From an uncultured delta proteobacterium (GTDB taxonomy: Bacteria > Myxococcota_A > UBA9160 > SMWR01), in the NCBI GenBank assembly GCA_963832165.1, contig CAWHTE010000001.1, positions 224,001 to 288,000 of the forward strand: a DNA stretch of 64,000 nucleotides, in the 5' to 3' direction. The notes under the pieces were generated by a model. That model had not been told where the DNA came from. It was given only the letters and a program-made list of their open reading frames with translations, and did no database searches. The first letter of the stretch is position 1. Each line of letters opens with the position of its first letter. A program made the translations under genes and the position numbers. Of this stretch, positions 5,490 through 59,579 are shown piece after piece.

Positions 5490-5622
5490 GTTCAACGGAT
5501 CGGGTTCAATTGCGAGTCACAGTGCCTCAGCGGACGGACCGATGCACCGAAGCTCGACGCCGGACGGTATCACGGATCGATTGGAACTCGCGTGGCTCGG
5601 CAGCTGCGGCGCCTTGTTCTGC
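5490..5622 (-). repeat. complete attC site (133 bp)
   Basis: Minus strand GCAGAAC-aaggc-gccgcagc-tgccgagccac...gtgactcgcaattgaac-ccgatcc-GTTGAAC; imperfect palindrome with a GTTRRRY core. Confidence 0.8.
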
Positions 5623-5663
5623 GCGTGCGTTACTGTGCCGATCCAGATGGTCAGGAGCCGGAG

Positions 5664-6125
5664 ATGATCGCGATCTTCGTGGACGGCGATGGCTGTCCGG
5701 TGAAGGACGAAACGTACGTGGTGGCTACGCGCTATGGGGTGCGTGTGGCGCTCGTGGCCAACTCTCGCCTCGGCGTGCCTCAGGGCTTGGGTGTCGAGTT
5801 GATCCTGGTCGATCAGGGACCCGATGCCGCAGATGACTGGATCGTGGAGAACGTGCGGCCCGGGGACGTCGTCGTGACGGCCGATATTCCGCTCGCGGCG
5901 CGCTGTCTGGAAGCGGGGGGTCGCGTGCTGGGTACCAATGGGCGGATCTTCAGCGAGGATTCGATCGGAACTCAGCTTGCCACTCGGGATCTGAAGGCTC
6001 AGCTACGAGAGGCGGGGATCATGTCCGGCGGCCCACCTCCCATGTCTGCAAAGGACCGCTCTCGATTTCTCTCGAGCCTCGACCAGCTCGTGCAGACTGG
6101 CCTCCGCGAAGATCGAGCCAGGTAG
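5664..6125 (+). CDS. YaiI/YqxD family protein (DUF188), inverted cassette
   Basis: IFVDGDGCPVK, DAADDWI and DVVVTADIPLA motifs. Confidence 0.92.
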   Translation: MIAIFVDGDGCPVKDETYVVATRYGVRVALVANSRLGVPQGLGVELILVDQGPDAADDWIVENVRPGDVVVTADIPLAARCLEAGGRVLGTNGRIFSEDSIGTQLATRDLKAQLREAGIMSGGPPPMSAKDRSRFLSSLDQLVQTGLREDRAR

Positions 6126-6136
6126 CCCGTTCTCAC

Positions 6137-6152
6137 GCCGCCTAACGGAGCT
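6137..6152 (-). repeat. attC remnant (R' box only)
   Basis: Minus strand ctccGTTAGGCggc directly after the stop of the DUF4440 gene. Confidence 0.65.
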
Positions 6153-6593
6153 TCACTGGGAGGAGTTCCAGATGTCGCGATGCAATAGCCACTTACCGCC
6201 GGTCCGCTTCCAGATCACGAGGTACCGGGCGTTGCTGGCGGTGCCGTCCTTGGCGATCAAGCCGACGTTCCCGGTTTCGTAGGCGAGATCGCCGACAGAT
6301 TCGACCTCCGCGGTCTCGAGAGTGACGTCCTTGACTCCGGAGTCGATCGATTTCTGCCAGAAGGCTGCAATGGCGGGGCGCGCTTTCGCCACGGGCGCTC
6401 CCGGAGCAATCACTTGCGCATCTGGCGTATAGAGACCGGCAACGGCCTTCGCGTCGCCGCGCAGGAAGGCGGTGATGAATGCGCGATTACCCGCCTCCAC
6501 CGCATCGCGAACCTCGTCGGATCGCGCCGGCGCAGCAGCAACGATGCATGCCAGGGCGAGGAGCGCGGTTGAAGTTCGGTGGGTGCTCATCAT
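6153..6593 (-). CDS. secreted DUF4440/NTF2-like protein
   Basis: Signal peptide; AFLRGDAKAVAGLYTPDA and YLVIWKR...WLLHRDIWN. Confidence 0.88.
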   Translation of the reverse strand: MMSTHRTSTALLALACIVAAAPARSDEVRDAVEAGNRAFITAFLRGDAKAVAGLYTPDAQVIAPGAPVAKARPAIAAFWQKSIDSGVKDVTLETAEVESVGDLAYETGNVGLIAKDGTASNARYLVIWKRTGGKWLLHRDIWNSSQ

Positions 6594-6660
6594 GAGGTCC
6601 TCCAATCTGTTAGGAATGCCAGGGTTCTCGAGACGGTCAGCTGTCGTGCTCTTGAATGTG

Positions 6661-6680
6661 GCCTAACTCATTCTAGGCAG
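6661..6680 (-). repeat. 20-bp compact recombination-site-like repeat, copy 1
   Basis: gcctaactcattctaggcag; 19/20 identical to 7060-7079. Confidence 0.8.
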
Positions 6681-6689
6681 CGGGTAGCA

Positions 6690-7043
6690 TCACCGGGTAC
6701 CCACCGGTCGAAGGGCTCGAGCCGGAATGCGGAGCCGGTACTGCTCGCTGGAGGACGCGTTCCAACGGACGGTATCCCTGGTCTGGTGGATCTCGTGCAT
6801 GCCGGACGGATCGAAGACGCGGAGATAGAGATCCGGCGCTGATTCTCGAACGTCACGGAAGTCATCGCGGGTGAACCGGATCTCGAACCGGCCGTCGTCG
6901 TCAGTTGTAGTGAATCCGATTCCGTCGTCGAAGATCAGGTCGCGATCGAATGCCCGGACGATGAAACCGGAGAGCGGACGCCCCGTCTCCTCCTCTTCGA
7001 TCACACCGAAGACGCGGAAGGAGTCTTGATCGGGGGTTGCCAC
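6690..7043 (-). CDS. transthyretin-like beta-sandwich hypothetical protein
   Basis: GRPLSGFIVRAFDRDLIFDD...TDDDGRFEI...PDLYLRV pattern. Confidence 0.7.
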   Translation of the reverse strand: MATPDQDSFRVFGVIEEEETGRPLSGFIVRAFDRDLIFDDGIGFTTTDDDGRFEIRFTRDDFRDVRESAPDLYLRVFDPSGMHEIHQTRDTVRWNASSSEQYRLRIPARALRPVGTR

Positions 7044-7059
7044 TAGCGTATCTCCGGCT

Positions 7060-7079
7060 GCCTAACTCATTCTGGGCAG
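7060..7079 (-). repeat. 20-bp compact recombination-site-like repeat, copy 2
   Basis: gcctaactcattctgggcag. Confidence 0.8.
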
Positions 7080-7095
7080 AGTACGCGCTAACGCA

Positions 7096-7428
7096 TCAGC
7101 GCACTTCGGACCGATGACCCCACACGCCACCATGCTTGGTGACCTTGAGATCACCCAGCACTTTGCATTGGCACGCCAGGCGAAGTCCTGATCCGTGATG
7201 ATGAGGAAAGACCCCGAGCCGTCGCTGCTCAGCTGCAGTCGCCTCGGAGATCTCGCCCTCGACCTCGACCGCGCAGCTCCCACACATCCCGCGTCCGCGA
7301 CAATTGAGAGCCTGGGCGACGCTGTTGTAAAGGGGAAGGCGCGCCCGTAGCAGAACCACTCGGAGGTTCGCTCCCGGAGGGCACTCGATCGACTGGCCGG
7401 AGAAATGAACGATCGGCATGGCTGTCAT
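7096..7428 (-). CDS. 2Fe-2S ferredoxin
   Basis: NCRGRGMCGSC...RLACQ cysteine motif. Confidence 0.92.
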   Translation of the reverse strand: MTAMPIVHFSGQSIECPPGANLRVVLLRARLPLYNSVAQALNCRGRGMCGSCAVEVEGEISEATAAEQRRLGVFPHHHGSGLRLACQCKVLGDLKVTKHGGVWGHRSEVR

Positions 7429-7444
7429 GACCCCGGTTCACGCT

Positions 7445-7532
7445 GAGTAACGGCCATGGCCAGCTGCGCGCGCCCGTGTACGACTATGCCACGACCGGTG
7501 GGCAGCGGGCGAATCGACAGCACGGCCCAGCT
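7445..7532 (-). repeat. attC remnant lacking R''
   Basis: Minus strand agctgggccgtg...cacgggcgcgcgcagctggcc-atggcc-GTTACTC; palindromic core with degenerate R'. Confidence 0.55.
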
Positions 7533-7537
7533 CATCT

Positions 7538-7765
7538 CTAGGCGCCCTGCGCGGACCCGCGGCCGACGCGACGCCAGACGGCACGCGCAATCACGACCGG
7601 CACGACAAGAACGATCGCCAACGCCGACAGAACCACGAGTGGCTGAAGAAACGAGGGGAGCAGAGAACTGTGTGGGCCCGCGAGAAATATGACGGCGAAG
7701 AAGCAGAGCGGAGCCAGCAGGGCCAGCGAGCCGAGCCAAACAAGGAGGGTTAGAAGCCAGCGCAC
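7538..7765 (-). CDS. small two-TM protein
   Basis: 75 aa, strongly hydrophobic, AGPHSSLLP loop. Confidence 0.6.
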   Translation of the reverse strand: MRWLLTLLVWLGSLALLAPLCFFAVIFLAGPHSSLLPSFLQPLVVLSALAIVLVVPVVIARAVWRRVGRGSAQGA

Positions 7766-7809
7766 TAGGCGGAAGGCCTAGCAGGGCCAGCTGCTAGATT
7801 CAACGAGCG

Positions 7810-8217
7810 ATGATCTCCGTAGACGAATTCGTCGAGCGCCTTTGCCGACTGGGTGCCGACCGGGGTCCTCGCGGTTTTCCGCGCAGGCGCCGCGATCGCG
7901 AGATCCTCCTCAAGAGTGTCGTGATGCTGATGGACAGCAGTCGGACATACGCCGAGCGCGAGGTGAACGCCCTCCTGCAGGACTGGAACCGCGACGTAGC
8001 CCCCGCAATCAAGACCGACCACGTGACTTTGCGACGACTCCTGGTCGACTACGGATACCTGGAGCGGACAAGGGACGGTCATGCGTATCGGGTTGGGTTC
8101 CCACCGCAACCTGTCGCGTTCGCTCTCGAGGTCGACGAGATCGACGTGCGAGCGACGATTGCGGCCTACGGAGAGTACCTGCGCAAGACGAGGCGTCGCG
8201 TGGGTCCCACCGCCTAA
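7810..8217 (+). CDS. DUF2087 family protein, inverted cassette
   Basis: YAEREVNALL...DHVTLRRLLVDYGYLERTRDGHAY. Confidence 0.88.
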   Translation: MISVDEFVERLCRLGADRGPRGFPRRRRDREILLKSVVMLMDSSRTYAEREVNALLQDWNRDVAPAIKTDHVTLRRLLVDYGYLERTRDGHAYRVGFPPQPVAFALEVDEIDVRATIAAYGEYLRKTRRRVGPTA

Positions 8218-8236
8218 CGGGTCGCGGCTCAGCTGC
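8212..8236 (-). repeat. attC remnant (L'-R' arm only)
   Basis: Minus strand cgcagctgagc-cgcgaccc-GTTAGGC; supplies the stop codons of both flanking genes. Confidence 0.75.
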
Positions 8237-8648
8237 GACCGGGCGGGCGTGTAACACTCGTAGCGAGCGCCAGGTTATTCCCGTCCGGATCCTTGAAGAA
8301 TGCCATCCACTCCTCGGTCCCGGGCTCGCCAAAGGTGCCGGCGTCGTCACGATGGATCAGGTGCGGTGGTGAATCGAAGACGATCTCGCGCGCCCTGAGG
8401 GATTTGTATGCAACATGGATGTCCGGGACCCAGAAGTAGAGGACGGAACCTCCGGGATCGGCAGCTTCGTGTCGCTCGAGAAGGAGACGCGTGTCGCCGA
8501 GCTGGAAGAAAGCAATCCCGGGAGGATCGAACTCGGCGATCAGGTGAAGGCCAAGGTGATCTCGGTAGAAGCGGATCGATCGCTCGAGATCGGTCGACGG
8601 CAGGGCGACCTGGTGGAGCGGTCCACCTATCGGTGCGTGACTTCCCAT
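8229..8648 (-). CDS. VOC/glyoxalase family protein
   Basis: LHQVAL...DLERSIRFYRDHLGL...FFKDPDGNNLAL. Confidence 0.93.
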   Translation of the reverse strand: MGSHAPIGGPLHQVALPSTDLERSIRFYRDHLGLHLIAEFDPPGIAFFQLGDTRLLLERHEAADPGGSVLYFWVPDIHVAYKSLRAREIVFDSPPHLIHRDDAGTFGEPGTEEWMAFFKDPDGNNLALATSVTRPPGRS

Positions 8649-8659
8649 GTCTCTCCTCC

Positions 8660-8708
8660 GCCGAACGGACCAATGCTCAGCCGTGCGGCGCAGCGCCGTC
8701 AGCTTCGG
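8660..8708 (-). repeat. attC remnant lacking R''
   Basis: Minus strand gaagctgacggcgctgcgccgcacggctgagc-attggtcc-GTTCGGC. Confidence 0.7.
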
Positions 8709-8717
8709 TCTCTCTCC

Positions 8718-9104
8718 CTAGAGATTCTCGAGAAGAAGGCTGCCGGCCGACACCAACAGCACCGCGAACGTGCCGAGCGTCCCCGCTGAGCGCGCTGGAG
8801 AGGTCGTGGTGAGCGAGACGCCGACTGCATGCGCAACGCGCGCGGCCAGCAAGCCAGCTCCGAGGGCCCATACGAGGCCTCCTGAGCCGCCGCCCAGCTC
8901 GACAAGCGCAATCAAGAGGAGAGCAAGAGGGACGTACTCGATGAAGTTGCCCTGAGCGCGCATACGGCGCGTCAGCTCTTCGTTCCCGCCATCGAGGAAC
9001 CAGATCTTCTCCTTGGACCGAAGAAGCCCGACGCGCAAACTCAGAAACACGAGCATGACTCCGAAAATGGCAGCAATGACTGAGGTGATGGGAACCGGTG
9101 ACAC
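8718..9104 (-). CDS. MAPEG family membrane protein
   Basis: RAQGNFIEYVP and ARVAHA motifs; four TM segments; aaggag RBS. Confidence 0.92.
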   Translation of the reverse strand: MSPVPITSVIAAIFGVMLVFLSLRVGLLRSKEKIWFLDGGNEELTRRMRAQGNFIEYVPLALLLIALVELGGGSGGLVWALGAGLLAARVAHAVGVSLTTTSPARSAGTLGTFAVLLVSAGSLLLENL

Positions 9105-9637
9105 AATGCTCCTTGTTGGGCGGCAAGCCAGTCAGAACCGCTAGCACTTCGTCGCGGGTCGAGCTTCTTGGTGAGAAAGCGCGTGGGGCCAGAGTCGCCT
9201 AAGACGAAATCGGCGAACCCAAAGTTCTTGTAGAGCGCCAGGGCTCTTGCGTTGTCGTCCTGGACCTCGAGCGTGAGCTTGCAGCACCCCCGACGCCTGG
9301 CGCGATCCTCCGCAGCTACCAGAAGTGCGCGTCCAACTCCTTGCCCTCGCCACTGCGGCAACACCGCCAGATCGTGGATATTCAAGAGCGGTCGAGCCTG
9401 GAAAGTGGACAACCCGAGAAAACACACCGCGACGCCTGCGGCGTGCCCTTCCGCGATGGCGAGTAGCACCAGTGTCGTGGGGTGATCCCGGAGAGCGGGT
9501 ATGAGTCGATCGCGGACCTCGGGTCCAAGAGGTTCTGCACCGCCCACGGGATCAGCTGCATACGAGTTGAGGACATCGATGATGCCGTCACGGTGTGCAG
9601 CATCGTCGAAGTCCGCGTCTACGATCTCGACTTGCAT
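9041..9637 (-). CDS. GNAT family acetyltransferase
   Basis: LNIHDLAV...WRGQGVGRALL...KLTLEVQDDNARALALY; C-terminus runs through an attC remnant. Confidence 0.92.
   Translation of the reverse strand: MQVEIVDADFDDAAHRDGIIDVLNSYAADPVGGAEPLGPEVRDRLIPALRDHPTTLVLLAIAEGHAAGVAVCFLGLSTFQARPLLNIHDLAVLPQWRGQGVGRALLVAAEDRARRRGCCKLTLEVQDDNARALALYKNFGFADFVLGDSGPTRFLTKKLDPRRSASGSDWLAAQQGALCHRFPSPQSLLPFSESCSCF
9115..9124 (-). repeat. attC remnant (R'' box only)
   Basis: Minus strand gccGCCCAAC fused directly to the RBS of the next gene. Confidence 0.5.
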
Positions 9638-9657
9638 GTCAACAGACTGCTCTCGCC

Positions 9658-9726
9658 GCCCAACGGATCGGCATTGAGCTGCCGGCCGCCCGGAAGGACC
9701 AGGAGACCCGCCCCATCTTATTAGGC
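9658..9726 (-). repeat. attC with altered left arm
   Basis: Minus strand GCCTAAT-aagatg...gcagctcaatgccgatcc-GTTGGGC; L'' not recognisable. Confidence 0.7.
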
Positions 9727-10269
9727 AGCGCCCTCGGGCATGAGCGCTGTATGCATGAAATCGGTGCCGCCAGGGTCATGGCCGAGCTGGAAGAGCAGCG
9801 CCGTGACTTGGCCACGGTGGTGTGTCTGGTGATTGAAAAGGTGCGCGACCACGTGCCAGAACGGCACCACCATGCTCTGGCCGGTGGAACGAGCATACGA
9901 AAGGTCGCTCTCGAGAATGTCGGGGGTAAGCTCAGCCACCCACGATTGGATCGCAGCATCGGTTTCGCGACGCTGCGCGGCCAGCTCCGGGAAGCTCTCG
10001 TATAGGACTTGTGCGAGCGACTGGAACTCGAAGACCAGTGGGGTCTTCTCGAGGGAGCGAAACCCATGAGGATGCTTGCTGATCCGACCCAGCCATATGC
10101 GATCCGTCAGGAGGATGTGGTTGAGCGTGCCGTGGATGGACCGAAAGAATGCACCCATGTCTCGGTTCCGCTCCTCCTCCGACAGGGACGATGCCAGGTC
10201 ATAGAGTCGGCCGTTGAACCAGGCGTTGTACTGTGCGAATCGGTAGAACTGCTTGAGATGGAGATTCAT
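9721..10269 (-). CDS. DinB/YfiT-family damage-inducible protein
   Basis: YNAWFN, FFRSIHGTLNHILLTD and HLFNHQTHHRGQ motifs; ATG at 10269. Confidence 0.93.
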   Translation of the reverse strand: MNLHLKQFYRFAQYNAWFNGRLYDLASSLSEEERNRDMGAFFRSIHGTLNHILLTDRIWLGRISKHPHGFRSLEKTPLVFEFQSLAQVLYESFPELAAQRRETDAAIQSWVAELTPDILESDLSYARSTGQSMVVPFWHVVAHLFNHQTHHRGQVTALLFQLGHDPGGTDFMHTALMPEGAA

Positions 10270-10301
10270 GCTCGATCCCTGGCGCCGCCTTGTATCTACC
10301 C

Positions 10302-10465
10302 CGTGGCCGTGCCGACGATCCGACCTAGCATGATCACGCTTCCGGGGAGACCGTTGCTGCCTGAAGCCACGAGCTTGTCCGTTAGATGGGTCCCCCGCCC
10401 TCTTCGCCCATGCCGTGGAGGATCCGAGGCCCGAGAGCCTGCATCCACAAGGTCGGTAGGCGACG
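10302..10465 (+). ncRNA. predicted bridge RNA
   Basis: 5' hairpin at 10302-10338; internal loop with gctgcct and tccgttag matching the target; second loop with gaggatc and acaag matching the circle junction. Confidence 0.8.
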
Positions 10466-10510
10466 GTACAGGGTCGGGGAACCCGGAAGCAGCGTAACAC
10501 GGGGGGACGC

Positions 10511-11497
10511 ATGCGTGGAGCCTGCTATGTGGGAGTCGATGTCAGCGCGGACGAGATCACGGTGGCGATCGAGGGGCGTGCCGAGCGGGTCACACTGGCC
10601 AACGATATCGAGGGCCACGAGCGACTGATTCGGTTGCTGACCCGCCGCGGAAAGGCCGCGCGCGTGTGCCTGGAGGCGACGGGCATCTACCACCTCGACT
10701 TGGCATTAGCGCTGCATCGAGCGCGAGCGATCGACGTGATGGTGGTGAACCCCTCGGCGGCGCGGGACTTCGGACGCGCGCTGCTGCAGCGCTCGAAGAC
10801 GGATCGCGTGGACGCAGGGGTGCTGCTGGAGTTTGCGCAGCGAATGCCTTTCGCATCGTGGCAGCCGCCCGCGCCCGAGATCCTCGATCTACGGGCGATC
10901 GTCCGTCGGATCGGCGCCCTCACCGTCACGCGAACCCAGGAGCGCAATCGACTTCATGCGGCGGGCCGCTGTGCGGAGCTCACCGAAGCGATCGCCTGGG
11001 ACATCGAAGCGCACCTCGAGCATCTCGCGCAGAGCCTGGAGCGTTTGCAGCAGCAGGCGCTCGAGCTCGTGCAAGCGCACCCCGAGCTCGCGCAACGCTT
11101 CGAGCGGCTCATTTCGGTCCGCGGCATCGCGACCACCAGCGCACTGCGCATTCTCGCCGAGCTCGCCGTGCTGCCCGCCGACATGACCCCTCGTCAGTGG
11201 GTCGCTCACGCGGGACTCGACCCGCGTGCGCACGACTCGGGAACCTCGCTGCACAAGCCCGCCCGGATCAGCAAGAAGGGAAACAGTCACCTGCGAGCGG
11301 CGCTCTACATGCCGGCGATGGTCGCAGCCCGTGAGGAGCCCAGTGTGAGGACCTTCTATCAGAAGCGCCTCGCAGGAGGACTCAAGCCCATCCAAGCCCT
11401 GGTCGCCGTAGAGCGAAAGCTCCTGCATAGCATCCACGGAATGTGGGCGAGCAATAGCAACTTCGACGGCGAGAAATTCTGCGCGATGAGCGCTTGA
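10511..11497 (+). CDS. IS110-family DEDD recombinase/transposase
   Basis: YVGVDVS, CLEATG, KTDRVDA, catalytic-Ser motif DSGTS and SKKGNSHLRAALYMPA. Confidence 0.96.
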   Translation: MRGACYVGVDVSADEITVAIEGRAERVTLANDIEGHERLIRLLTRRGKAARVCLEATGIYHLDLALALHRARAIDVMVVNPSAARDFGRALLQRSKTDRVDAGVLLEFAQRMPFASWQPPAPEILDLRAIVRRIGALTVTRTQERNRLHAAGRCAELTEAIAWDIEAHLEHLAQSLERLQQQALELVQAHPELAQRFERLISVRGIATTSALRILAELAVLPADMTPRQWVAHAGLDPRAHDSGTSLHKPARISKKGNSHLRAALYMPAMVAAREEPSVRTFYQKRLAGGLKPIQALVAVERKLLHSIHGMWASNSNFDGEKFCAMSA

Positions 11498-11514
11498 CAG
11501 CGCAGAGAGGATCT

Positions 11515-22458: not shown

Positions 22459-23073
22459 GACGACGCCAAACTATCGTCGGGGTCGCGATCGGGGTCGCGA
22501 TTGAACTCGTTCATCGCGGCGGCGACGCCGTGCCGCAGCGCGGCCTCGAGTGCGCGCGCGGCGCGATCGATGTGCTCGGGCAGCACCGACTGCTCGCCAG
22601 CTGAGAACGGCTCGAGCACGTAGTCGGCGGTCTCCTGTTCTTGCGCGGGCCGACCCACCCCGAAGCGCAGCCGCGCGAAGTCGCTCCGCTCGAGCCGCAG
22701 GGTCACATCGGCGAGGCCGCGGTGGCCGCCCGCGCCGCCCGCCGGGCGCAGGCGCAGCCGGCCGAACGGCAGGTCGACGTCGTCGAACACCACCAGGAGA
22801 TCGCCCGCGACGTCGTCGACGCCGAGCTCCGCGACCGCTTGCGCGACCGCTTCGCCCGAGCGGTTCATGAACGTCTCGGGCGCGAGCAGCGCCACGGCGA
22901 TCCGCGGCTCCGGGCCCGCGAAGCCAGCCGGTGCCGAAGCGCGAGCCGAAGCGGCGCGCGTCGAGCGTGATCCCGTGCTCGCGCGCGAAGCGCTCGAGCA
23001 CGCGCACCCCCACGTTGTGCCGGGTGTCGGCGTAGCGCGGCCCCGGGTTGCCGAGGCCGACCACCAGCTTCAC
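22455..23073 (-). CDS. pth: peptidyl-tRNA hydrolase, frameshift near 22900
   Basis: VGLGNPG..Y..TRHNVG in one frame; PETFMNRSG and GGHRGL in the next. Confidence 0.92.
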
Positions 23074-24766: not shown

Positions 24767-24842
24767 TGGCTGGGGCGGCAGGACTCGAACCTGCAGATGG
24801 CGGCTCCAAAGGCCGCTGCCTTACCAGTTTGGCGACGCCCCA
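24767..24842 (-). tRNA. tRNA-Gln(TTG)
   Basis: Cloverleaf TGGGGCG...CGCCCCA-G-CCA; anticodon loop CTTTGGA; GTTCGAG T-loop. Confidence 0.97.
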
Positions 24843-46451: not shown

Positions 46452-48977
<2,526 letters not shown>

Positions 48978-48996: not shown

Positions 48997-50405
48997 CTAC
49001 GACTGGATCACCAGCTTCGACAGGCTCGTCTTGCGCAGGTTGGTCTTCTGAATCGTGCGGACCAGCTCGGCGACCTTCTCGATATCGGTCTCGAACGGAT
49101 TGTTACAGATGACGCGGACGTTGAGAAGGTTTCCGAGTCGGATGTTCGACCAGTCGAGGTCGTACTGGATCGAGTTCTGGCGCGCGAGCTTGATGAACTC
49201 GCCGCGCATGCGCGCGCGCGTGTCCGGCGGCGGCTCGGTCTTCGCCTTGATGATCTCTTCGTCGTTGAGCACGCGCTCGACCATTCCACCGCGCTCGAGC
49301 AGGTAGTAGAGCCCGCGGTTGAGGCGCAGGTCGTGGTACTGGAGATCGAGCATGAACACGCGCGGGTCGTTCCAGCGTGGTGTTGTTGCGCTCGATGTAC
49401 GAGCGGATCATCTTGCGCTTGATCACCCAGTCGATCTCGCGGTCGAGCTGATCCGGGTCGTCGCTCAGGCAGTCGAGCGTGTACTGCCACTTTGCCACGG
49501 CGTCGCGCAGCTCGTCGCGACACCGGGTACTGCTCGATGTACTTGTGCGCCATCTCGCAGTACTCCATCTGGATCTCGATCGGGGAGTACTCGCGGCCGT
49601 TGTCGAGCCGGAGCTTGCGCTTGCACGTGGTGTCGTAGGAGATGTCCTTGATCGCCTTCACGGGATTGCGCAGCGTGAAGTCCTGATTGATGAAGTTGTC
49701 TTCGATCATCTGGAGCACGATCGCGCACGCGCCGACCTTCAGGAAGTTCGTGTACTCCGACATGTTGGAGTCGCCCACGATCACGTGCAGGCGGCGGTAC
49801 TTCTCGCGGTCGGCGTGGGGCTCGTCGCGCGTGTTGATGATCGAGCGATCGTTCGTCGTCGTGCCCGAGATCTTCTGATAGATGTGCTGGGCGCGCTGGC
49901 TCGTGCAGTAGTGCACGCCGTCCTGGGTCTGGAACACCTTGCCCGCGCCGGTGTAGATCTGGCGCGTGACGAGGAACGGGATCAGCTGCTCGGCGAGGTA
50001 GTAGAAGTCGACATCGCGGTCGACGAGGTAGTTCTCGTGGCAGCCGTAGCTGTTGCCGACGAAGTCGGTGTTGTTCTTGAAGATCGAGAGCTTTCCGGAG
50101 ATGCGCTCCTCGCGGATCTTCTCCTCCGCGTACATCTGGAGGTCTTCGAGGATCCGCTCGCCGGCCTTGTCGTAGACGATCAGCTGGCGCGGCGATGCGC
50201 ACTCGGGCGTCGCGTACTCGGGGTGGCAGCCCGTGTCCTGGTAGAAGCGGGCGCCGTTCTCGAGGAAGACGTTTAAGAAGTGCTCGGTGGTGATCAGCTT
50301 CTCGAACAAGAAGCGGATCGCCTTCTCGACGGGAAGCGTCTTCCGCCCGTCGGGCGTGAAGATGATCCCGTACTCGGTCTCGATCCCGTAGATGCGCTTC
50401 TGCAC
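48997..50405 (-). CDS. pafA: Pup--protein ligase, frameshifts near 49520 and 49375
   Basis: RIYGIETEYG, HPEYATPEC, KNNTDFVGNSYGCHENY, RDEPHAD, DLQYHD and PPPDTRA motifs. Confidence 0.93.
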
Positions 50406-50444
50406 GCCACCCGCCCGACCCGAAAGAGGCCGACCCTCGCGGGT

Positions 50445-51137
50445 CTAGCCGCCGAGGTGCTGTCTCAGCTCATCGGTATCGAGCCTACGGAACTTTCGGC
50501 CGATTCGCGCCTTTTCGAGCAGGCACACCTCGAGATTCTCCGGGTTTACCGAGGCCTTGCCGTCCTTTGCCCGCGAGAGAATCGAGTGCCCGAGCTTGAG
50601 TGCTTCCCCGAGGGGTAGGTCCGGCCGGTAGGTCGAGGAGAGCTGACTGCGCAACTCCTCCTCGGAGCCTCCGATCACGCAGAAATTCCGGTGATCGCTG
50701 ATGCTGCCGTCGTACTGGATCCGGTAGATCTCGTTCTCCTCGTGGCCGGCCAGGCCGGGGTCGCCGACCTCCACCACGATCACCTCGACCTCGAGCGGCT
50801 TGAGCTCGCGCGTGAATACGTCGCCGATCGCCTGCGAGTAGGCGTTCGCGAGCGCGCGCCCGCGCACGTCGTCGCGGCTGTACTGGTAGCCCTTCATGTC
50901 CGCATAGCGGACGCCGATCTTCCGCAGCTGATCGAACTCGCTGAACTTCCCGACGCCCGCGAACGCGATCCGGTCGTAGATCTCGCCGATCTTGGACAGC
51001 GTGGAAGTGTTCTCGGCCATCAGCACGATGCCGTCCTTGAACTCCAGCGTGATGCTCGACTTGCCGCGGGCGATGCCCTTGCGGGCGTACTCGGCCTTGT
51101 CCTGCATCACCTGCTCGGGCGAGACGTAGAAGGGCAT
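50445..51137 (-). CDS. prcA: 20S proteasome alpha subunit
   Basis: MPFYVSPEQVMQDKAEYARKGIARG, EIYDRIAF and KPLEVE. Confidence 0.96.
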   Translation of the reverse strand: MPFYVSPEQVMQDKAEYARKGIARGKSSITLEFKDGIVLMAENTSTLSKIGEIYDRIAFAGVGKFSEFDQLRKIGVRYADMKGYQYSRDDVRGRALANAYSQAIGDVFTRELKPLEVEVIVVEVGDPGLAGHEENEIYRIQYDGSISDHRNFCVIGGSEEELRSQLSSTYRPDLPLGEALKLGHSILSRAKDGKASVNPENLEVCLLEKARIGRKFRRLDTDELRQHLGG

Positions 51138-51139
51138 GC

Positions 51140-51961
51140 TCACGATGCGGCTCCGTTGCGCCCGTTCGCGCGGCGCGCGAGGATCGCGTCGTAGACTTCG
51201 CGGATCTCGGTCGAGGGCGCCTGCTCGATGCCCGGCTGCGAGCAGAAGATCACGGTCGGGAAGATCCCGCGCACCGTGTCGATCCCGCCCGTACCGCGGT
51301 CTTCGTCTGCGGCGTCGGTGAGCGCCTGGACCGCCATCTCGAGCGCCTCGCTCTTCGACGCGCGCGCGTGGTGCGACTTCTTGAGCGACTCGCGCGCGTA
51401 GAGCCCGCCCGAGCCCGTGGCCTCGTACTCGGCCTCCTCGTAGCGCCCGCCCGTGACGTCGAACTTCCACAGGCGGCCCTGCTTGCGCCGCAGGTCGTAG
51501 CCCGCGAACAGCGGCACCACGACGAGCCCCTGCATCGCGGCCGGCAGATTGGCGCGGATCATCTGCGACAGCTTGTTGGCCTTGCCGTCGATCTCGAGCG
51601 CCTGCCCCTCGATCTTCTCGTAGTGCTCCAGCTCGATGCGCATGATGCGCGCCATCTCGATCGCGGGGCCCGCGGCGCCCGCGATCGCGATCATCGAGTG
51701 GTCGTCGGTGGCGTAGACCTTCTGGACGTCGCGCGAGGCCACGCGCAGGCCCTCGGTCGCAAGGCGATCGCCCGCGACGATCACGCCGTCGGTGTACTTG
51801 AACGCGAGCACCGTGGTTCCGTGGGGAACGTTCAGGCGCTCGAGGTTGCCGTAGCGACCCAGGTCGAACGCCAGGTGCGGGTACTCGACCTGGAGGAGCT
51901 CCAGGAAGCTCGACCCGTCGTACCCCTGACTCGTCCCGGAACCAAAACCCGAAAAACGCAA
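51140..51961 (-). CDS. prcB: 20S proteasome beta subunit with propeptide
   Basis: PHG/TTV autocleavage site, GDR, IAGAAG and GSG motifs; TTG start with ggagg SD. Confidence 0.95.
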   Translation of the reverse strand: MRFSGFGSGTSQGYDGSSFLELLQVEYPHLAFDLGRYGNLERLNVPHGTTVLAFKYTDGVIVAGDRLATEGLRVASRDVQKVYATDDHSMIAIAGAAGPAIEMARIMRIELEHYEKIEGQALEIDGKANKLSQMIRANLPAAMQGLVVVPLFAGYDLRRKQGRLWKFDVTGGRYEEAEYEATGSGGLYARESLKKSHHARASKSEALEMAVQALTDAADEDRGTGGIDTVRGIFPTVIFCSQPGIEQAPSTEIREVYDAILARRANGRNGAAS

Positions 51962-51992
51962 AGTCCGCTTCCTCCCCCCGGCGGAGCGGCGA

Positions 51993-52265
51993 CTACTCGC
52001 CTCCGCGCTGGACGTAGTTCTTGACGAACTCCTCGGCGTTCTCTTCCAGCACCTCGTCGATCTCGTCGACGAGCGCGTCCATCTCGTCCTTGAGCTTCTC
52101 GCCCTTCTTGGCGAGCTTCTGCGGTCCCGCGCCCTTGTCGTTGCCGCCCTCGTCGCCGCCCTTCTTGGGCGCCTGCTTCTGGCTGCTCTCTGCGGCCGAG
52201 TAGAGCGGAAGCCATACGTCCCGCTCACCGCGGGAATTCTTCTGGAGTTTCGTCGTTACATGCAT
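51993..52265 (-). CDS. pup: prokaryotic ubiquitin-like protein Pup
   Basis: DALVDEIDEVLEENAEEFVKNYVQRGGE C-terminus; ggag SD 5 nt before ATG. Confidence 0.93.
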   Translation of the reverse strand: MHVTTKLQKNSRGERDVWLPLYSAAESSQKQAPKKGGDEGGNDKGAGPQKLAKKGEKLKDEMDALVDEIDEVLEENAEEFVKNYVQRGGE

Positions 52266-52281
52266 GTTGGCTCCCGTCGTA

Positions 52282-53769
52282 TCAGGCTCGCAGGTTCCTC
52301 ACCAGATCGGCAGCGGTGGGGGAACTGTCGAGCAGGTCTTCCACGTGGGCTTTGGTCCCCTTGAGAGGCTCGGCCATCAGGATGCGCTTGATCGGCTCGC
52401 TGTCGACGCCGAACGAAATCGAATCCCAATTGACCCCGAATACCGCGGCTCCGTACTTCTTCAGGCACTGCCCGCGGAAATAGGCCCGCGTGTCAGCCGG
52501 CGGGGTATGAATCGCCGCGAGAATCTCGTCGTCCGTGACGATCCGCTCCGCGTGACCCTGCCGCTCCAGAAGATAGTACAGACCCCTTCTCCGGACGAAG
52601 ATCGTGGTACTGGAGATCGAGCATCTCTACCTGGGCCGAGTTCCAGTCCAGTGACTTGCGCTCCATGAAGCGCTCGATCATCGCCTTCTTCATCACCCAG
52701 TCGATCTTCTCGTGGAGCTCCATCGGATCGCTGCGCAGCGCTTCGATCGCGTGCTCCCACTTCACGAGCACGTCCTTCGTGATCGGATCGAGCGACTGCT
52801 TGGCCGTGTAGGCGAGCGCCATCTCGAGGTAGTCGGCCTGGATGTCGATCGCGGACCGGCGCTTGCCGTCGTCGAGCGGGAACTCGTGCTTGCAGGTGGG
52901 GTCGTGCGAGACTTCCTTGATCGCGCGCACCGGGTCTCGCAGCGACAGGTTCTTCGTGATCGCGCCGTCCTCGATCATCGCGAGCACGAGCGCAGTCGCG
53001 CCGTTGCGCAGGTAGATCGTGTACTCGGACAGATTCGCGTCGCCCACGATCACGTGGAGACGGCGGTACTTCTCGCGATCGGCGTGCGGCTCGTCGCGCG
53101 TGTTGATGATCGGCCGCTTCACCATCGTGTCGAGCGCGACCTCGGTCTCGAAGAAGTCGGCGCGCTGCGAAATCTGATACTCGCACGGATGTCCGCGGTT
53201 CTCCGAGCCGACCTTGCCCGCGCCGCAGTAGATCTGCCGCGTCACGAAGAAGGGCATCAGGCACTCCACGATCTGCTTGAAGGACGTGCGGCGGTCCATC
53301 AAGTAGTTCTCGTGCGATCCGTAGCTGTTGCCCTTGCGGTCGCTGTTGTTCTTGTAGATCAGCATCTGCGTGCCGGCCGGCAGCAGTGCGTTGGCTTCGC
53401 GGCGGCTCGACTTCGAGGATCCGCTCGCCCGCCTTCTCGTGCACGACCAGGTCGCGGACGTTCGTGACTTCCGGACACGAATACTCGGGGTGCGCGTGGT
53501 CGACGTAGTAGCGCGCGCCGTTCACGAGCGTCTTGTTGCGCGCGATGTTCTCCTGCTGGTTCGGCGTGTACTTCTCGCCGTCCACCTGGAAGCCGCGCGC
53601 GTCCGCGAGCGGGATTCTCCTGGTCGTAGTCCCAGAGGATCTCGCCCGCGTGATCCTCGCGGTACGCGTTGACCAGCAGCACGCAGCTGCTGATCGGGTC
53701 GAAATCGGGATCACCCTTCACGGTGATCCCGTACTCGACCTCTGTCCCCATCACCTTCGGAATCGCCAT
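52282..53769 (-). CDS. dop: Pup deamidase/depupylase, several frameshifts
   Basis: [57 protein letters not shown] and NWDS motifs. Confidence 0.93.
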
Positions 53770-53803
53770 TCAGTCTCCGCGCGAGTGGCGCCTCGCGTAC
53801 CCG

Positions 53804-55648
53804 TTACAGGTACTGGCCCGAGGTGATGTTTTCAATCGACTTCTCCTTGCGGGAAATGCCCGTCATGAGCGTGCGCACGTTGATGATGCGCTCGCCCTTC
53901 CGACCCGAGATCCGCGCCCAGTCATCCGGGTTGGTGGTGTTCGGAAGGTCCTCGTTCTCCTTGAACTCGTCGTTCACGGAGTTGATGAGGTCTTCGAGCA
54001 TGATTCCGCGCTCGTTGTGCTCGATCGTGCGCTTCACTGCGCGCTTCTTCGCGCGCGACACGATGTTCTGGATCATCGCGCCGCTTGCGAAGTCCTTGAA
54101 GTAGAAGATCTCGCGCTCGCCCTTCGCGTAGGTGACCTCGAGGAACTTGTTCTCCTCGTTGGTCGTGTACATGCGGTCGATCGTGTCCGAGATCATGCCC
54201 TCGACGATCTTGGCCGCATCGCTGCCGTAGTGCTCCTGCGCGCTCGCGTGGAACGGCAGGTCGGCGGTCAGATACTTCGTGAAGATCTCGCGCGCCGCGT
54301 TTGCATCCGGCCGATTCACCTTGATCTTGAGGTCGAGGCGGCCCGGCCGCAGCACGGCGGGATCGATCAGGTCCTGGCGATTGCTGGCGCCGATCACGAT
54401 CACGTTGTTGAGCGACTCGACGCCGTCGATCTCCGACAGGAACTGCGCGACCACGGTCGCTTCCATGTCGGAGGAGATGCCCGAGCCGCGCATGCGGAAC
54501 AGCGAGTCCATCTCGTCGAAGAAGATCACGACCGGCACGTTCTCGCTCGCCTTGTCGCGCGCCTTCTTGAAGACCTCGCGCAGCTTGTGCTCGGTCTCGC
54601 CGACGTACTTGTTCAGGAGCTCGGGGCCCTTGACGTTCAGGAAGTACGGCGTGGTCTCCTTGCCGGTGCGCTTCTCGATGCTCTTCGCGAGGCTGTTCGC
54701 GACCGCCTTCGCGATCAGCGTCTTGCCGCAGCCGGGCGGGCCGTAGAGCAGGATGCCCTTGGGCGCCGACAGCTTGTGCTCTGCGAAGACCTCCGGGTAG
54801 ATGTAGGGCAGCTCGACCGAGTCGCGCAGGATGCCGATCTGGTCGCCGAGACCGCCGATGTCGTCGTAGGTGACGTCCGGGATCTCCTCGAGCACCACTT
54901 CTTCGACGGCCGACTTCGGCATCTTCTCGAACGCGTAGTGCGTGCGCGGGTCGTAGAGGATGTGGTCTCCGACCTTGAGGGTCTCGCGCCGCAGCGGATC
55001 CGAGAGCGTGATCACGCGCTCGTCGTCCGTGTGCCCGAGTGCGATCACGCGGTTGTCGGCGAGGAAATCGACGACCGACGCGATCTCGCCGCGCGCGATG
55101 AAGCCCGCGGGCTCGACGACGTTGAACGCCTCGTTCAGCACCACCTGCTGGCCTTCCACGAACTGGAAGGGGTCGACGTTCGGATGCACGTTCACGCGCA
55201 TCTGGCGGCCGTCGACGAAGATCTCCGCGGTGCCGTCCTTGTTGGCGCGCGTGAAGACCCCGTAGTTGTTGGGCGGAGCGCAGAGCTTGTCGACTTCCTC
55301 CTTGAGGAGCTCGATCTGCTGCTTCGCTTCCTGCAGCACGCCGACCAGGCGCTCGTTCTGTCGCTCGGCGTCGGCGAACTGCTCGCGCGTGAGGTGATAG
55401 CGGCGGCGCATCGCCTCGTGCTCGGCGAGCACGCGGTCGAGGCGGCGGCGGAACTCGGGCGAATCGGCGCCAAACAGGCGCAGCGCATTGCGGAGATCTT
55501 CGACTTCGTCGCGCGGCGACCGCGCGGGATCGCCTTCGCCGGGCTCCGACGGTTCACCTTCCGGCCCCGGAGGAGCGGCGGAGATGCGTCGCATCACGTC
55601 GCGCACGAAGCCCTTTCGACCAGACCTCGGATCGAACTCGCTGCTCAT
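53804..55648 (-). CDS. arc: proteasome ATPase ARC/Mpa
   Basis: Coiled coil, PP motif, OB region, GPPGCGKT, KGPELLNKYVGE, DLPNTTNPDDW and C-terminal GQYL. Confidence 0.97.
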   Translation of the reverse strand: MSSEFDPRSGRKGFVRDVMRRISAAPPGPEGEPSEPGEGDPARSPRDEVEDLRNALRLFGADSPEFRRRLDRVLAEHEAMRRRYHLTREQFADAERQNERLVGVLQEAKQQIELLKEEVDKLCAPPNNYGVFTRANKDGTAEIFVDGRQMRVNVHPNVDPFQFVEGQQVVLNEAFNVVEPAGFIARGEIASVVDFLADNRVIALGHTDDERVITLSDPLRRETLKVGDHILYDPRTHYAFEKMPKSAVEEVVLEEIPDVTYDDIGGLGDQIGILRDSVELPYIYPEVFAEHKLSAPKGILLYGPPGCGKTLIAKAVANSLAKSIEKRTGKETTPYFLNVKGPELLNKYVGETEHKLREVFKKARDKASENVPVVIFFDEMDSLFRMRGSGISSDMEATVVAQFLSEIDGVESLNNVIVIGASNRQDLIDPAVLRPGRLDLKIKVNRPDANAAREIFTKYLTADLPFHASAQEHYGSDAAKIVEGMISDTIDRMYTTNEENKFLEVTYAKGEREIFYFKDFASGAMIQNIVSRAKKRAVKRTIEHNERGIMLEDLINSVNDEFKENEDLPNTTNPDDWARISGRKGERIINVRTLMTGISRKEKSIENITSGQYL

Positions 55649-55707
55649 GCCGTCTCCTCGTTCAGCCGGCGTACCTGTCGGGTCGCTGCGGCTCCGCGCG
55701 GAGTTAC

Positions 55708-55723
55708 TGCAAGCGGGATGCCA
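55708..55723 (-). promoter_or_regulatory. sigma54 (-24/-12) promoter motif upstream of arc
   Basis: Minus strand TGGCAT-cccgc-TTGCA (GG-N10-GC), 59 bp before the arc ATG. Confidence 0.7.
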
Positions 55724-56431
55724 CTACCGATCGGAGCGTATCCATCTCGATCCACTGCACAGAATTCTGTTGCGACTGGAAGGTTCGCGCGGCGTCGCCG
55801 CAACCTGTGTTGCACGTGCGCGCCAGTTTCGTGTGAGCTGCCGCGGGTGTTCGCTCGAAGCGACTGCGGTGCTGCGAACACCGCGGCGCAACGAGTCCAA
55901 AACAACTTCGGTGCTCGTATTTCTCCCATCGCGAATCACCCGGGAGCCATGCAACCGATGCTGCGCCAACGCAGCCGTCCGAGGGCGGATCGCTGGCTCC
56001 CAACCTCCCGGAATAGCGAAACTTTTTCGAGCGTAGCAGAGGCGCCAAGCGGCAACCATCACCGCGCCGCAGATAGCGGTCTAAGTAGCGACGGAGCCAC
56101 CGCGAATCGGGCCTCGCGCGCATGGGTGCGAGGTCGGCCGAAAGGACGGGCGCGATCGATCCGCGGGCAGGCCGGCGGGTGTCCGCCACGGGGGCAATCG
56201 TGCCCTTCATGAGGCGCGGGTCCGCACCCAACTCGCCCCGCGCGATTAGCGCGACCGCTGCGCACCCCCTGCCGCTTAGAGATGCTCAGTGAGGGTTCAG
56301 GAGCCGGCGATTTTGACGCAACCGTCGGCAAGTCGTCTCGGAAACCGGGCGCGAAGTGGCTTGCGCGGGGGAAGCCCAACGGAGAAGCGCGGTTCCAATT
56401 TTGGGCGGTGGCGCGCACCGCACCGCGGCTT

Positions 56432-57133
56432 TCAGGGCGAGATCTCGATCACCTTCACCCCGTCCGGAACCTCGAAACGGAACTCGGACTCGCCGGGGTT
56501 CAGGTTGAAGCGCTGATCGCGGAACTCCACGACCACGGTGTTGCCCAGCAGATCCACGATGCGCGTCTGATGCACGTCCCCGGACGCGGGGTCGACGCGC
56601 AGCATCAGCTTCTCGTAGGTCGCGGGCTGACGCGGAATCAGCTCGAGCTCCGCCGCCGCTTTGTCACACGACTTCGCGGTGACCTTGAAATCGCGGCGCA
56701 TGTCTCCCGCACCGAGCAGGAACTGAGCGGCGGCGCCGGTGAGGAAGCCCTCGGCGGCCGGAAGCTTCTGGACCTCGCCGAACGCGGGATCGAAGATCCA
56801 GACCGTCTTGCCGTCGCTCACGACCAGGCTCGGCTCCGGCTCTTCGTAGGTCCAGCGCATCTTTCCGGGCTTGGCCAGCGTCACGCGCCCGCGCGAGGCC
56901 GCGGGAGAGGTCGGGGAAGTGCCGAAGCGCGCTGCGTGGGTGGACTGTTCGAAGCGCGCCGAGACGTCGCGGACCCCCTCGTAGCGCGACTGGACCGCGG
57001 TCGCCGCGCGATCTCGGCAGCGCTCCGCTTCGGATGCGCCGCGGGCCTTCTCGCCTGCCGAGGCATTCGAGCCGGCCGTCGACAGCGCGGCGGCGAGTAC
57101 CAGGGCCGCGCCTCTCCTGTGCCACGGGGTCAT
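56432..57133 (-). CDS. lolA: outer-membrane lipoprotein carrier
   Basis: Signal peptide; KPGKMRWTY..P and VSDGKTVW motifs. Confidence 0.92.
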   Translation of the reverse strand: MTPWHRRGAALVLAAALSTAGSNASAGEKARGASEAERCRDRAATAVQSRYEGVRDVSARFEQSTHAARFGTSPTSPAASRGRVTLAKPGKMRWTYEEPEPSLVVSDGKTVWIFDPAFGEVQKLPAAEGFLTGAAAQFLLGAGDMRRDFKVTAKSCDKAAAELELIPRQPATYEKLMLRVDPASGDVHQTRIVDLLGNTVVVEFRDQRFNLNPGESEFRFEVPDGVKVIEISP

Positions 57134-57170: not shown

Positions 57171-59579
57171 TCAAGAGTCGAGCGCGCTCACGAAGACTTC
57201 GCGCGGCTTCGTCCCGACCTGCGGCCCGACCACACCCTGCTGCTCCATGTACTCGACGATCCGCGCAGCGCGGTTGTAGCCGATCTTCAGGCGGCGCTGC
57301 ACGTACGAGATCGACGCGTTGCGCGTCTGGGCCACGATCGCCACGGCCTGGTCGTACATCTCGTCGATGTCGTCGTCGCCGCCGGGACGATCCTCGCTCT
57401 CCGCGTTCAACTTCACGAGATCGACGTCGAAGCTGGGCGCGCCCTGTTCGCGCAGGAAGTTGGTGAGGTTGGCGACCTCGTCCTCCGTGACGAAGGCGCC
57501 GTGCACGCGCTGCAACTTCGACGTACCCGGCGGCACGAACAGCATGTCGCCCGAGCCGAGCAGCTGGTCCGCGCCGTTCTGGTCGAGCACCGTGCGCGAG
57601 TCGATCTTCGTGGATACCTGGAACGAGATCCGGGCCGGGAAGTTCGCCTTGATCACGCCCGTCAACACGTCGACGCTCGGGCGCTGCGTGGCGAGCACGA
57701 GGTGGATGCCGGCGGCGCGCGCCATCTGCGCGAGTCGCTGCAGCGACTCCTCGACGTCCTTCGCGCATACCACCATCAGATCCGCGAGCTCGTCGATCAC
57801 CACTAGGATGTACGCGAGCGGGCGGAACTCGACCTCGACGCCCACCTCCTCCTCGTCGTGGCGAGGCTTGAGCCGGAACGTCTTGTTGCCTGCGGCGATC
57901 TCCTTCTGGCAGCGCTCGTTGAACTGCTGGATGCTGCGCACGCCGAGCGCGGCCATCAGCTGATATCGCTCCTCCATCTTGCGCACGATGCCCGCGAGCG
58001 CGGCCGAAGCGCGCTTGGGGTTGGTCACGACGTCAGCGATCAGGTGCGGAATTCCCGCGTAGACCGAGAGCTCGAGCAGCTTGGGGTCGATCAGCAGGAG
58101 CTTGAGCTCGTCGGGCGTGCGTCGGCACAGGATCGAGCAGAGCAGCGAATTCAGGAACACGCTCTTCCCGGTGCCCGTCGCCCCCGCGACCAGCAGATGC
58201 GGCATCTTGGCGAGGTCGGCGTCGACCGGATTCCCGAAGATGTCCTTGCCGACGGCGACCGGCAGCGGCGCGTTGCTGTTGCGGAACTTCTCGCTCTCGA
58301 GCAGCTCGCGCAGATAGACGGTCTCGCGTTCGGCGTTGGCTACTTCGATCCCGACCACCGCCTTGCCCGGCAGCGGCGCGATGATCCGGACCGAGAGCGC
58401 GCGCAGCGCGAGCTCGAGATCGTCCTGCAGGTTCACGATCTTCTGGACCTTGATGCCCGACGCCGGCTCGAACTCGTACATCGTGACCACGGGTCCGGGG
58501 TGCACCTTCACGACGCTGCCGCCCACGTTGAAGTCCGCGAGCTTCTTCTCGAGGATCCGCGACTGCATGATCAGGCTCTCGCGGTCGTAGGCACGCGTGT
58601 CGCGCCGCGGCTCCTGGAACATCGAGATGTCGGGAAGCCGATAGGGGCCGTGCGGCCGGGACTCGCGGAACGAGAAGCTCGCCTGGCGGGCACCCTTCGC
58701 CGCGCGCTCCTCCGCGTGGTCGACGATCTGCGGCGGCCCCTTGCGGGTGCTCTGCACCGGCGTGGGCACGGCGCTCGCGGCCGTGGGTTCGACCACCTCC
58801 TGGGCGGCGACGTCGGCCTCGGGCTCGATCTCGGGCTCGCGCTGTGCGGCCACCCGCACGCGGCGCGCGCGCTGCTCGCGCCATACGGTGAGGCTGCGCC
58901 AGCCCTCGTCCAGCCCGCGGCCTAACGCTGTGAACGCGCGCCGCGACGCGTGTGCAGCCGCCACCGCCGTGCGTCCGGCTCCCGCGACGGCGCCGAACAC
59001 GAGCGCGCTCAGCGCGGCGATCGCGATCCCGATCCCCGCGATCGTGCGTTCGAGCGAGATGTGCGTGACCGCGAGCGCTCCGACCGCGGCTGCGAGCGCG
59101 TTGGCGAGCAGGGCACCCCAGGTTCCGAGCGCCCAGACCTGATAGCTCGCGAGCAGCTCGCCGAGCCGGCCCCCTTCGAGGCCGGCGAAGCGCGGAATGG
59201 CGGCCCCGAGCAGCGGGGGCAACGCGCACGCGGGCAGTAGCAGCAGCGGGATCGAGAGCTGCAGACGAGCCGAGGCCGGCGGAAGTCCGCGGCCGGCCAG
59301 AAAGCGCGCCCCGATCACGGCCACGACCGCCACGAGTAGATAGGAGGCCAGGCCGAAGCTTCCGAACAGGCCCGCCGCGACGAGCCCGCCGAGGCGGCCG
59401 CCGCGGTTGGCGACGCGGTCGGCGCCCCAGAGCGGGTCGCCCGGTGCGTAGCTCCAGAGCGCGATCGCCGAGAACACGGCGAAGCCCAGCAGCGCGACGC
59501 CGGCTGCCTCGCGCACGAACGGACTGCTCGCGAACCGGGTCTCGGCGCGAGCGGACCGAGCCCGCTCCGCCCTAGCCAT
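57171..59579 (-). CDS. ftsK: DNA translocase FtsK
   Basis: 4TM N-domain, AGATGTGKS, IDELADLM, LATQRPS and gamma domain IGYNRAA. Confidence 0.97.
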   Translation of the reverse strand: MARAERARSARAETRFASSPFVREAAGVALLGFAVFSAIALWSYAPGDPLWGADRVANRGGRLGGLVAAGLFGSFGLASYLLVAVVAVIGARFLAGRGLPPASARLQLSIPLLLLPACALPPLLGAAIPRFAGLEGGRLGELLASYQVWALGTWGALLANALAAAVGALAVTHISLERTIAGIGIAIAALSALVFGAVAGAGRTAVAAAHASRRAFTALGRGLDEGWRSLTVWREQRARRVRVAAQREPEIEPEADVAAQEVVEPTAASAVPTPVQSTRKGPPQIVDHAEERAAKGARQASFSFRESRPHGPYRLPDISMFQEPRRDTRAYDRESLIMQSRILEKKLADFNVGGSVVKVHPGPVVTMYEFEPASGIKVQKIVNLQDDLELALRALSVRIIAPLPGKAVVGIEVANAERETVYLRELLESEKFRNSNAPLPVAVGKDIFGNPVDADLAKMPHLLVAGATGTGKSVFLNSLLCSILCRRTPDELKLLLIDPKLLELSVYAGIPHLIADVVTNPKRASAALAGIVRKMEERYQLMAALGVRSIQQFNERCQKEIAAGNKTFRLKPRHDEEEVGVEVEFRPLAYILVVIDELADLMVVCAKDVEESLQRLAQMARAAGIHLVLATQRPSVDVLTGVIKANFPARISFQVSTKIDSRTVLDQNGADQLLGSGDMLFVPPGTSKLQRVHGAFVTEDEVANLTNFLREQGAPSFDVDLVKLNAESEDRPGGDDDIDEMYDQAVAIVAQTRNASISYVQRRLKIGYNRAARIVEYMEQQGVVGPQVGTKPREVFVSALDS

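Follow-up and report, generated by a model that had tools for sequence, protein, structure and literature searches.

The Pup-proteasome system is encoded by a single six-gene operon in an uncultured delta proteobacterium. The operon, arc-dop-pup-prcB-prcA-pafA, lies on the minus strand at positions 48997–55648 of the stretch of DNA analysed here, referred to below as the window (64,000 nucleotides (nt) of contig CAWHTE010000001.1, positions 224,001–288,000, assembly GCA_963832165.1). We consider it, with a rough probability of 0.85, to be a canonical Pup-proteasome operon that is probably unbroken and functional in the organism itself, with the frame breaks present in the assembled dop and pafA being probable assembly errors. 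The same operon recurs at the same chromosomal place throughout the class of Myxococcota to which the host belongs, and a conserved motif resembling a sigma-54 promoter precedes arc.

Gene content and identity of the operon products

The identity of the gene products was judged by the NCBIfam equivalog cut-offs, Dop and PafA being scored on the intact copies of a close relative (locus L093). On these profile scores all six products are assigned to the Pup-proteasome system at the equivalog level, Dop and PafA by way of the L093 copies. The proteasome ATPase Arc scored 741.8 bits against TIGR03689 (cut-off 504.75), contains two OB domains (Pfam Prot_ATP_ID_OB_N and Prot_ATP_ID_OB_C) and an AAA domain, and had Mpa as its best PDB match (7px9, 646.8 bits). 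Its translation includes a Walker A motif (GPPGCGKT), a Walker B motif (VIFFDEMD) and a C-terminal GQYL, which we take to be the 20S-docking motif and which also ends the Arc proteins of 72 of 77 relatives.

The small protein of the operon matched Pup by both PF05639 (E = 9e-19) and TIGR03687 (55.8 against a cut-off of 41.45), and no other family fitted it among matches up to an E value of 1e-5; its start codon was inferred from a Shine-Dalgarno-like GGGAG upstream. PrcB scored 291.4 against TIGR03690 (cut-off 191.9), and its best solved-structure matches were the Rhodococcus and Mycobacterium beta subunits. Because the first residue of the mature beta chain of Rhodococcus (1q5q_H) aligns to PrcB residue 49 (T49), the propeptide is predicted to comprise 48 residues, placing Thr1 within HG|TTVLAF; D17 and K33 are also present in the translation and, together with Thr1, presumably fill the catalytic roles. 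PrcA, the start codon of which overlaps the prcB stop codon (ATGA), scored 287.5 against TIGR03691 (cut-off 139.05), with residues 1–231 aligning within one frame by tblastn.

For the two Pup-ligase-family enzymes, the main dop piece of the window had TIGR03688 as its top NCBIfam model and the first pafA piece had TIGR03686. The intact L093 copies, scored as whole proteins, reached 591 against TIGR03688 (cut-off 492.3) and 555.9 against TIGR03686 (cut-off 551.3). The best solved-structure matches were 4b0r for Dop and 4b0t for PafA, and Pfam placed Pup_ligase on the pieces of both genes and Proteasome on prcB and prcA. An earlier reading of this DNA (the original prediction) had proposed this gene content, order, strand and set of coordinates, all of which were borne out by the translations, Pfam and NCBIfam. 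It had also called the operon complete; all six genes are present, and completeness extends to their reading frames only if five single-base insertions in dop and pafA are read through.

Frame breaks in dop and pafA

When the intact L093 proteins were compared with the window by tblastn, Dop matched in four pieces (87–96% identity) and PafA in three (75–98% identity). Nucleotide alignment to L093 resolved the breaks into three 1-base insertions in dop (at ~53614, ~53408 and 52583–52586) and two in pafA (at ~49518 and ~49375). Each of the five is a +1 insertion, and four lie outside homopolymers; the pieces between the breaks hold no stops. None of the five was found in the nine closest relatives' loci compared with the window, including L093. 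They were also missing from soil-metagenome contigs of relatives, those from four runs having one letter fewer at each of the five sites, with two contig pieces ~96% and ~98% identical to the window.

Insertions of the same type are common in this assembly. When 89 genes from 264 kb of a genome of the same genus were compared with the assembly, 6 proved to be split, by 13 shifts in all, and every shift was readable as +1 save in one gene with messy overlapping matches. A reference-free codon-phase scan of the genome gave 425 insertion-type against 111 deletion-type frame changes among those lacking a stop, whereas true gene boundaries, which carry a stop, showed the opposite bias (283 against 781); the insertion-type excess was seen on all large contigs. 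The essential genes pth and dnaE are both struck: the genome's only pth match is in two pieces (profile positions 1–47 and 53–183) whose frames differ by +1, with the break at ~22.9 kb of the window, and one dnaE (C5:22529-25628) is in at least six pieces. The marker completeness of the genome, only 89.4% for an assembly in 11 contigs, is in line with such errors. Since the insertions are absent from relatives and from near-identical contigs and are in excess genome-wide, the five breaks are very probably errors of assembly and not biology. If so, +1 insertion errors number in the hundreds across the assembly, and its apparent pseudogenes should not be taken at face value.

Several observations weigh against this reading. 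The rpoB and rpoC genes and two copies of secA are intact, so that any errors must be patchy, and five breaks in 6.65 kb exceed the genome-wide detected rate of ~7–12 per 100 kb. The restriction of all five to dop and pafA, with arc, pup, prcB and prcA spared, is the pattern expected if the tagging enzymes alone had been lost. Among public sequencing runs none holds the strain, the best share of sampled words being 0.24, and the insertions are not directly disproved by them. The neighbouring mreB paralogue has a +1 insertion of its own at ~47963, where its tblastn match splits; it was not kept as evidence that an essential gene had been misassembled, because a second, intact mreB is present elsewhere in the genome (C1:856941-857918).

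The clean long genes, the local density and the confinement of the breaks to two Pup-ligase-family genes would be accounted for if dop and pafA were real pseudogenes, with pupylation and depupylation lost and Arc and the 20S core kept, perhaps acting on untagged substrates. We regard this as unlikely: five of five breaks are +1, the pieces are free of stops and deletions and retain 75–98% amino-acid identity to intact relatives, and near-identical contigs carry none of the insertions. The same insertion type, moreover, is in excess across the genome and has struck pth, a dnaE and the adjoining mreB paralogue. The single direction of all shifts might instead point to programmed +1 ribosomal frameshifting or transcriptional slippage, an explanation we consider exceedingly improbable, as no slippery motif is common to the five sites, the breaks occur in none of the relatives compared and the same events affect unrelated genes genome-wide. 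The worry attached to the original prediction, that the frameshifts in dop and pafA might be real, is most likely unfounded, the breaks having the appearance of assembly errors.

Within the window the codon-phase scan flagged 22870–22921, 34662, 43558 (the start of an MCP gene) and 47954; the flags at 22.9 kb (pth) and 47.95 kb (mreB) were verified as frame breaks. Elsewhere in the genome, the dnaE-like genes at C5:22529-25628 and C11:78-5748 are broken into many frame pieces, with errors in dense patches. Two related loci show multiple-piece matches as well, for ftsK, prcA and pafA in L038 (an 878-kb contig) and for ftsK and pafA in L067, and frame errors may therefore be present in other assemblies of the class.

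Host lineage, conservation and inheritance

Related loci were collected by using Arc as a query on species-representative genomes, and the best 80 of 423 related stretches were kept; the scan returned only members of the window's class. Distribution was assessed in a phylum sample of 301 evenly drawn genomes, 58 from the window's class and 243 from outside it. The host is a member of an uncultured class of Myxococcota, in keeping with the "Myxococcota-like" label of the original prediction, which is supported by the record titles of 61 of the 80 relatives (Myxococcota, Myxococcales, Myxococcaceae or delta-proteobacteria); the remaining 19 are labelled otherwise or more vaguely, including 11 as "uncultured Spirochaetales". 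The host genome is in 11 contigs, with a marker completeness of 89.4% and a guanine-plus-cytosine (GC) content of ~70%.

All 80 related loci were colinear in the order ftsK-lolA-arc-dop-pup-prcB-prcA-pafA-mreB, as far as each contig extends, with Arc identities to the window of 71–93%. The ftsK/lolA flank was kept in 79 of them and the six genes were complete in 63, the other 17 ending at the contig or locus end inside or just after the operon. The Pup ligase family was found in 39 of 41 genomes of the same order and its model PF03136 in 56 of the 58 class genomes, while the bacterial 20S beta-subunit model TIGR03690 was found in 54 of 58. Outside the class, PF03136 matched in 8 of the 243 phylum genomes, more weakly (E = 1e-43 to 1e-77) and at a single locus each, and TIGR03690 matched in none of the 243. 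Because the operon is colinear in all loci and near-universal in the class, and the beta subunit is absent from the phylum sample outside it, the proteasome-linked operon is, as judged from these genome comparisons, a class-level, vertically inherited trait. The "stable integration" of the original prediction is upheld by these data, as is the synteny that it had proposed to check in relatives. The system belongs to the fixed core of this class and is no sporadic import.

The GC content of the operon, 0.64 against 0.70 for ftsK and for the genome, might suggest that the operon was acquired recently by horizontal transfer, with Actinobacteria or Nitrospirota as donors, or that the contig is chimeric or a contaminant. 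The older literature would lend itself to such a reading, a 2012 review describing non-actinobacterial occurrences as sporadic and transferred (PMC3511204). We find this very unlikely. The operon GC lies below that of ftsK in 54 of 55 related loci, by ~5 points, so that the dip is conserved and does not point to recent import. The shared flanks in all 80 relatives, at the Arc identities given above, and the class-wide presence of the system also speak against it, and chimerism, which the original prediction had named as a danger, is contradicted by the same flanks. The nearest mobile-element genes, an rve-family integrase and an IS110 transposase, are more than 37 kb away, those of the window being confined to 3–4.3 kb and 10.5–11.5 kb, as the earlier statement that no mobility genes lie nearby had held. 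Finally, the operon is preceded by a predicted promoter of a type that needs sigma-54, and the sigma-54 DNA-binding domain (PF04552) had no match in a Corynebacterium control genome. An ancient transfer of the operon into the ancestor of the class is possible.

Identity within the class is uneven, PafA (81–98%) standing far above PrcA and PrcB (56–81%). The Pup C-termini of the class (loci L016–L095) are divided between GGE (36 of 70 readable copies) and GGQ (33 of 70).

A predicted sigma-54 promoter upstream of arc

The sequence TGGCATCCCGCTTGCA, situated upstream of arc, has one mismatch to the sigma-54 consensus and is predicted to be a promoter of the −24/−12 type. Of 79 upstream regions, only 10 contained a strict form of the motif, TGGCA[CT]-N5-TTGC[AT]. 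When the 130-nt stretches preceding arc were aligned, a conserved YGGCAY-N5-TTGCA block emerged in which the first base is mostly C, and the motif was widened after this alignment to YGGCAY-N5-TTGCW, with counts made over the window plus 79 loci. In this form, it occurred ahead of arc in 75 of 80 cases; its matches in 2.33 Mb of related-locus sequence, both strands included, numbered 76, of which 74 fell at this spot. The genome also has a match to the sigma-54 DNA-binding domain (rpoN, PF04552; C4:586970-587446). These results suggest that transcription of the operon from the arc upstream motif may be sigma-54-dependent. Against this, matches to the sigma-54 consensus are not enriched across the window as a whole. 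A scan of 47–57 kb for sigma-70 promoters and terminators gave nothing above shuffled sequences.

A broader proposition, that the whole diderm class drives its Pup-proteasome from a sigma-54 promoter, gated by an enhancer-binding activator in response to a signal, is one to which we would give even odds. To our knowledge, Actinobacteria lack sigma-54. If the proposition were true, tagging and degradation in this class would be under a sigma-54 control logic that is absent from Actinobacteria, where the system has been studied.

Proposed mechanism

By homology with the characterized system, pupylation would begin with PafA joining Pup, through its C-terminal glutamate, to lysine residues of substrate proteins; as Pup here already ends in GGE, no deamidation would be needed. 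Pup would then be bound by a hexamer of Arc/Mpa, which would unfold the tagged substrate and pass it into the 20S core of PrcA and PrcB, Arc docking on that core through its C-terminal GQYL. Proteolysis would be carried out by Thr1 of PrcB, and Pup would be removed and recycled by Dop. Given the GGE/GGQ split, the deamidase role of Dop would matter in about half of the class members, and its depupylase role alone would matter here. Expression of the whole set might be gated by the predicted sigma-54 promoter before arc together with an enhancer-binding activator.

Relation to known systems

The operon belongs to a system that is already known, to which it adds a new but unremarkable host group and not a new kind. 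It shares with the actinobacterial Pup-proteasome (Mpa, Dop, Pup, PrcB, PrcA and PafA of M. tuberculosis and M. smegmatis; ARC and 20S of Rhodococcus) the same six genes in the same order, the Arc GQYL tail, the PrcB propeptide and Thr1, the GG[E/Q] end of Pup and a retained Dop, and its best solved-structure matches are actinobacterial proteins. It differs in its host, an outer-membrane-bearing member of Myxococcota with lolA and BamD encoded in the window, in the sigma-54-type motif before arc, in the fixed place between ftsK/lolA and mreB and in the near-even division of Pup ends across the class. It also lacks pafBC or tat genes after pafA, where a small open reading frame (ORF) and mreB are found instead.

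Pup systems of Gram-negative phyla, including the gene sets termed "UBact", have reportedly been treated by De Mot in 2007 and by Lehmann et al. in 2017, and are treated by Iyer et al. (2008; PMC2588565). Like those of Leptospirillum (Nitrospirae), Verrucomicrobia and "UBact", the present operon links pupylation to a proteasome in one complete locus of a diderm outside Actinobacteria; it differs in phylum and in that its small protein matches the Pup model.

The only deltaproteobacterial Pup case found in print (Iyer et al. 2008; PMC2588565) is that of Plesiocystis pacifica, which is described there as having Pup and one membrane-anchored ligase that contains a hydrophobic insert and is not flanked by proteasome genes. 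Plesiocystis shares with the window its phylum and a Pup-ligase-family enzyme, but its single ligase lacks the proteasome linkage that the operon provides here. The homologues found outside the class may be compared with it: the one inspected (L110, 4578–6236) encodes a ligase of 552 amino acids (aa) interrupted by a long hydrophobic insert. Its neighbours are genes for HAD, phosphodiesterase and HisG proteins, with no proteasome genes alongside, and in these respects it matches the Plesiocystis type (PMC2588565).

In several genomes of the class, dop and pafA are not the only Pup-ligase-family genes (G014, G038, G017, G225, G319 and G247, and further G147, G100, G285, G314, G280 and G157). 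The additional genes are open frames of ~520–650 aa with E values of 1e-75 to 1e-92, some in tandem, and may be of the membrane-inserted type. A profile search of the window's genome gave no such extra copy.

A full-text literature search, with most subscription journals outside its scope, returned no paper on a Pup-proteasome in Myxococcota or in this lineage, which fits the description of the operon as probably uncharacterized there in the original prediction; no earlier report from the lineage emerged to contradict it. With this operon, a pathway known almost entirely from work on Actinobacteria reaches Gram-negative bacteria of soil and sediment, in a group that is large, widespread and uncultured, and the class offers a natural comparison set for Pup ending in glutamate or glutamine (PupE and PupQ), for sigma-54 control and for a diderm envelope.

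Chromosomal setting

The features of the operon and its surroundings are listed in Table 1. Pfam annotation of the flanks agreed with the placement between lolA/ftsK and mreB given in the original prediction. The remainder of the window consists of core genes (murC-like, dnaB, rplI, rpsF, pth, rplY, ispE, bamD-like, ispG, recA, cinA, pgpA, ruvX, ssb and radC).

Table 1. Coordinates of the operon, its flanks and other features of the window.
Feature	Coordinates	Strand	Remarks
ftsK	57171-59579	-	Pfam; upstream flank
lolA	56432-57133	-	Pfam; upstream flank
−24/−12 motif TGGCAT-N5-TTGCA, TGGCATCCCGCTTGCA	55708-55723	-	predicted promoter; 5' end 75 nt before the arc ATG
arc/mpa, proteasome AAA ATPase	53804-55648	-	614 aa, uninterrupted
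dop, depupylase/deamidase	52282-53769	-	four frame pieces as assembled
pup	51993-52265	-	up to 90 aa, ends ...YVQRGGE, uninterrupted
prcB, 20S beta subunit	51140-51961	-	273 aa, TTG start, uninterrupted
prcA, 20S alpha subunit	50445-51143	-	232 aa, uninterrupted
pafA, Pup ligase	48997-50405	-	three frame pieces as assembled
small transmembrane/coiled-coil ORF	48591-48977	-	128 aa, no family; between pafA and mreB
mreB paralogue	47398-48436	-	Pfam MreB in two frame pieces; downstream flank
tRNA	24770-24842		Rfam
pth	22500-23067	-	two frame pieces
IS110 transposase	10511-11497		mobile element
DinB-family protein	9721-10512
AveC-like spirocyclase	4442-5104
rve-family integrase	2991-4265		mobile element

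The product of the small ORF between pafA and mreB combines a hydrophobic segment with a coiled-coil-like tail; it is weakly conserved, at 31–41% identity, in 13 of the 80 loci. Upstream of arc, the spacer that separates it from lolA (55649–56431) measures 783 nt, against a median of 791 and a range of 515–1108 in relatives. It is unusually long, and beyond the ~130 promoter-proximal nt its sequence is not conserved even in the closest relatives. At Rfam gathering thresholds, the only match in the window was the tRNA listed in Table 1, with none in this spacer. At the other end of the window, positions 1–11500 have a GC content of 0.62–0.66 and hold the integrase, the AveC-like spirocyclase, the DinB-family protein and the IS110 transposase; this low-GC stretch is possibly an island.

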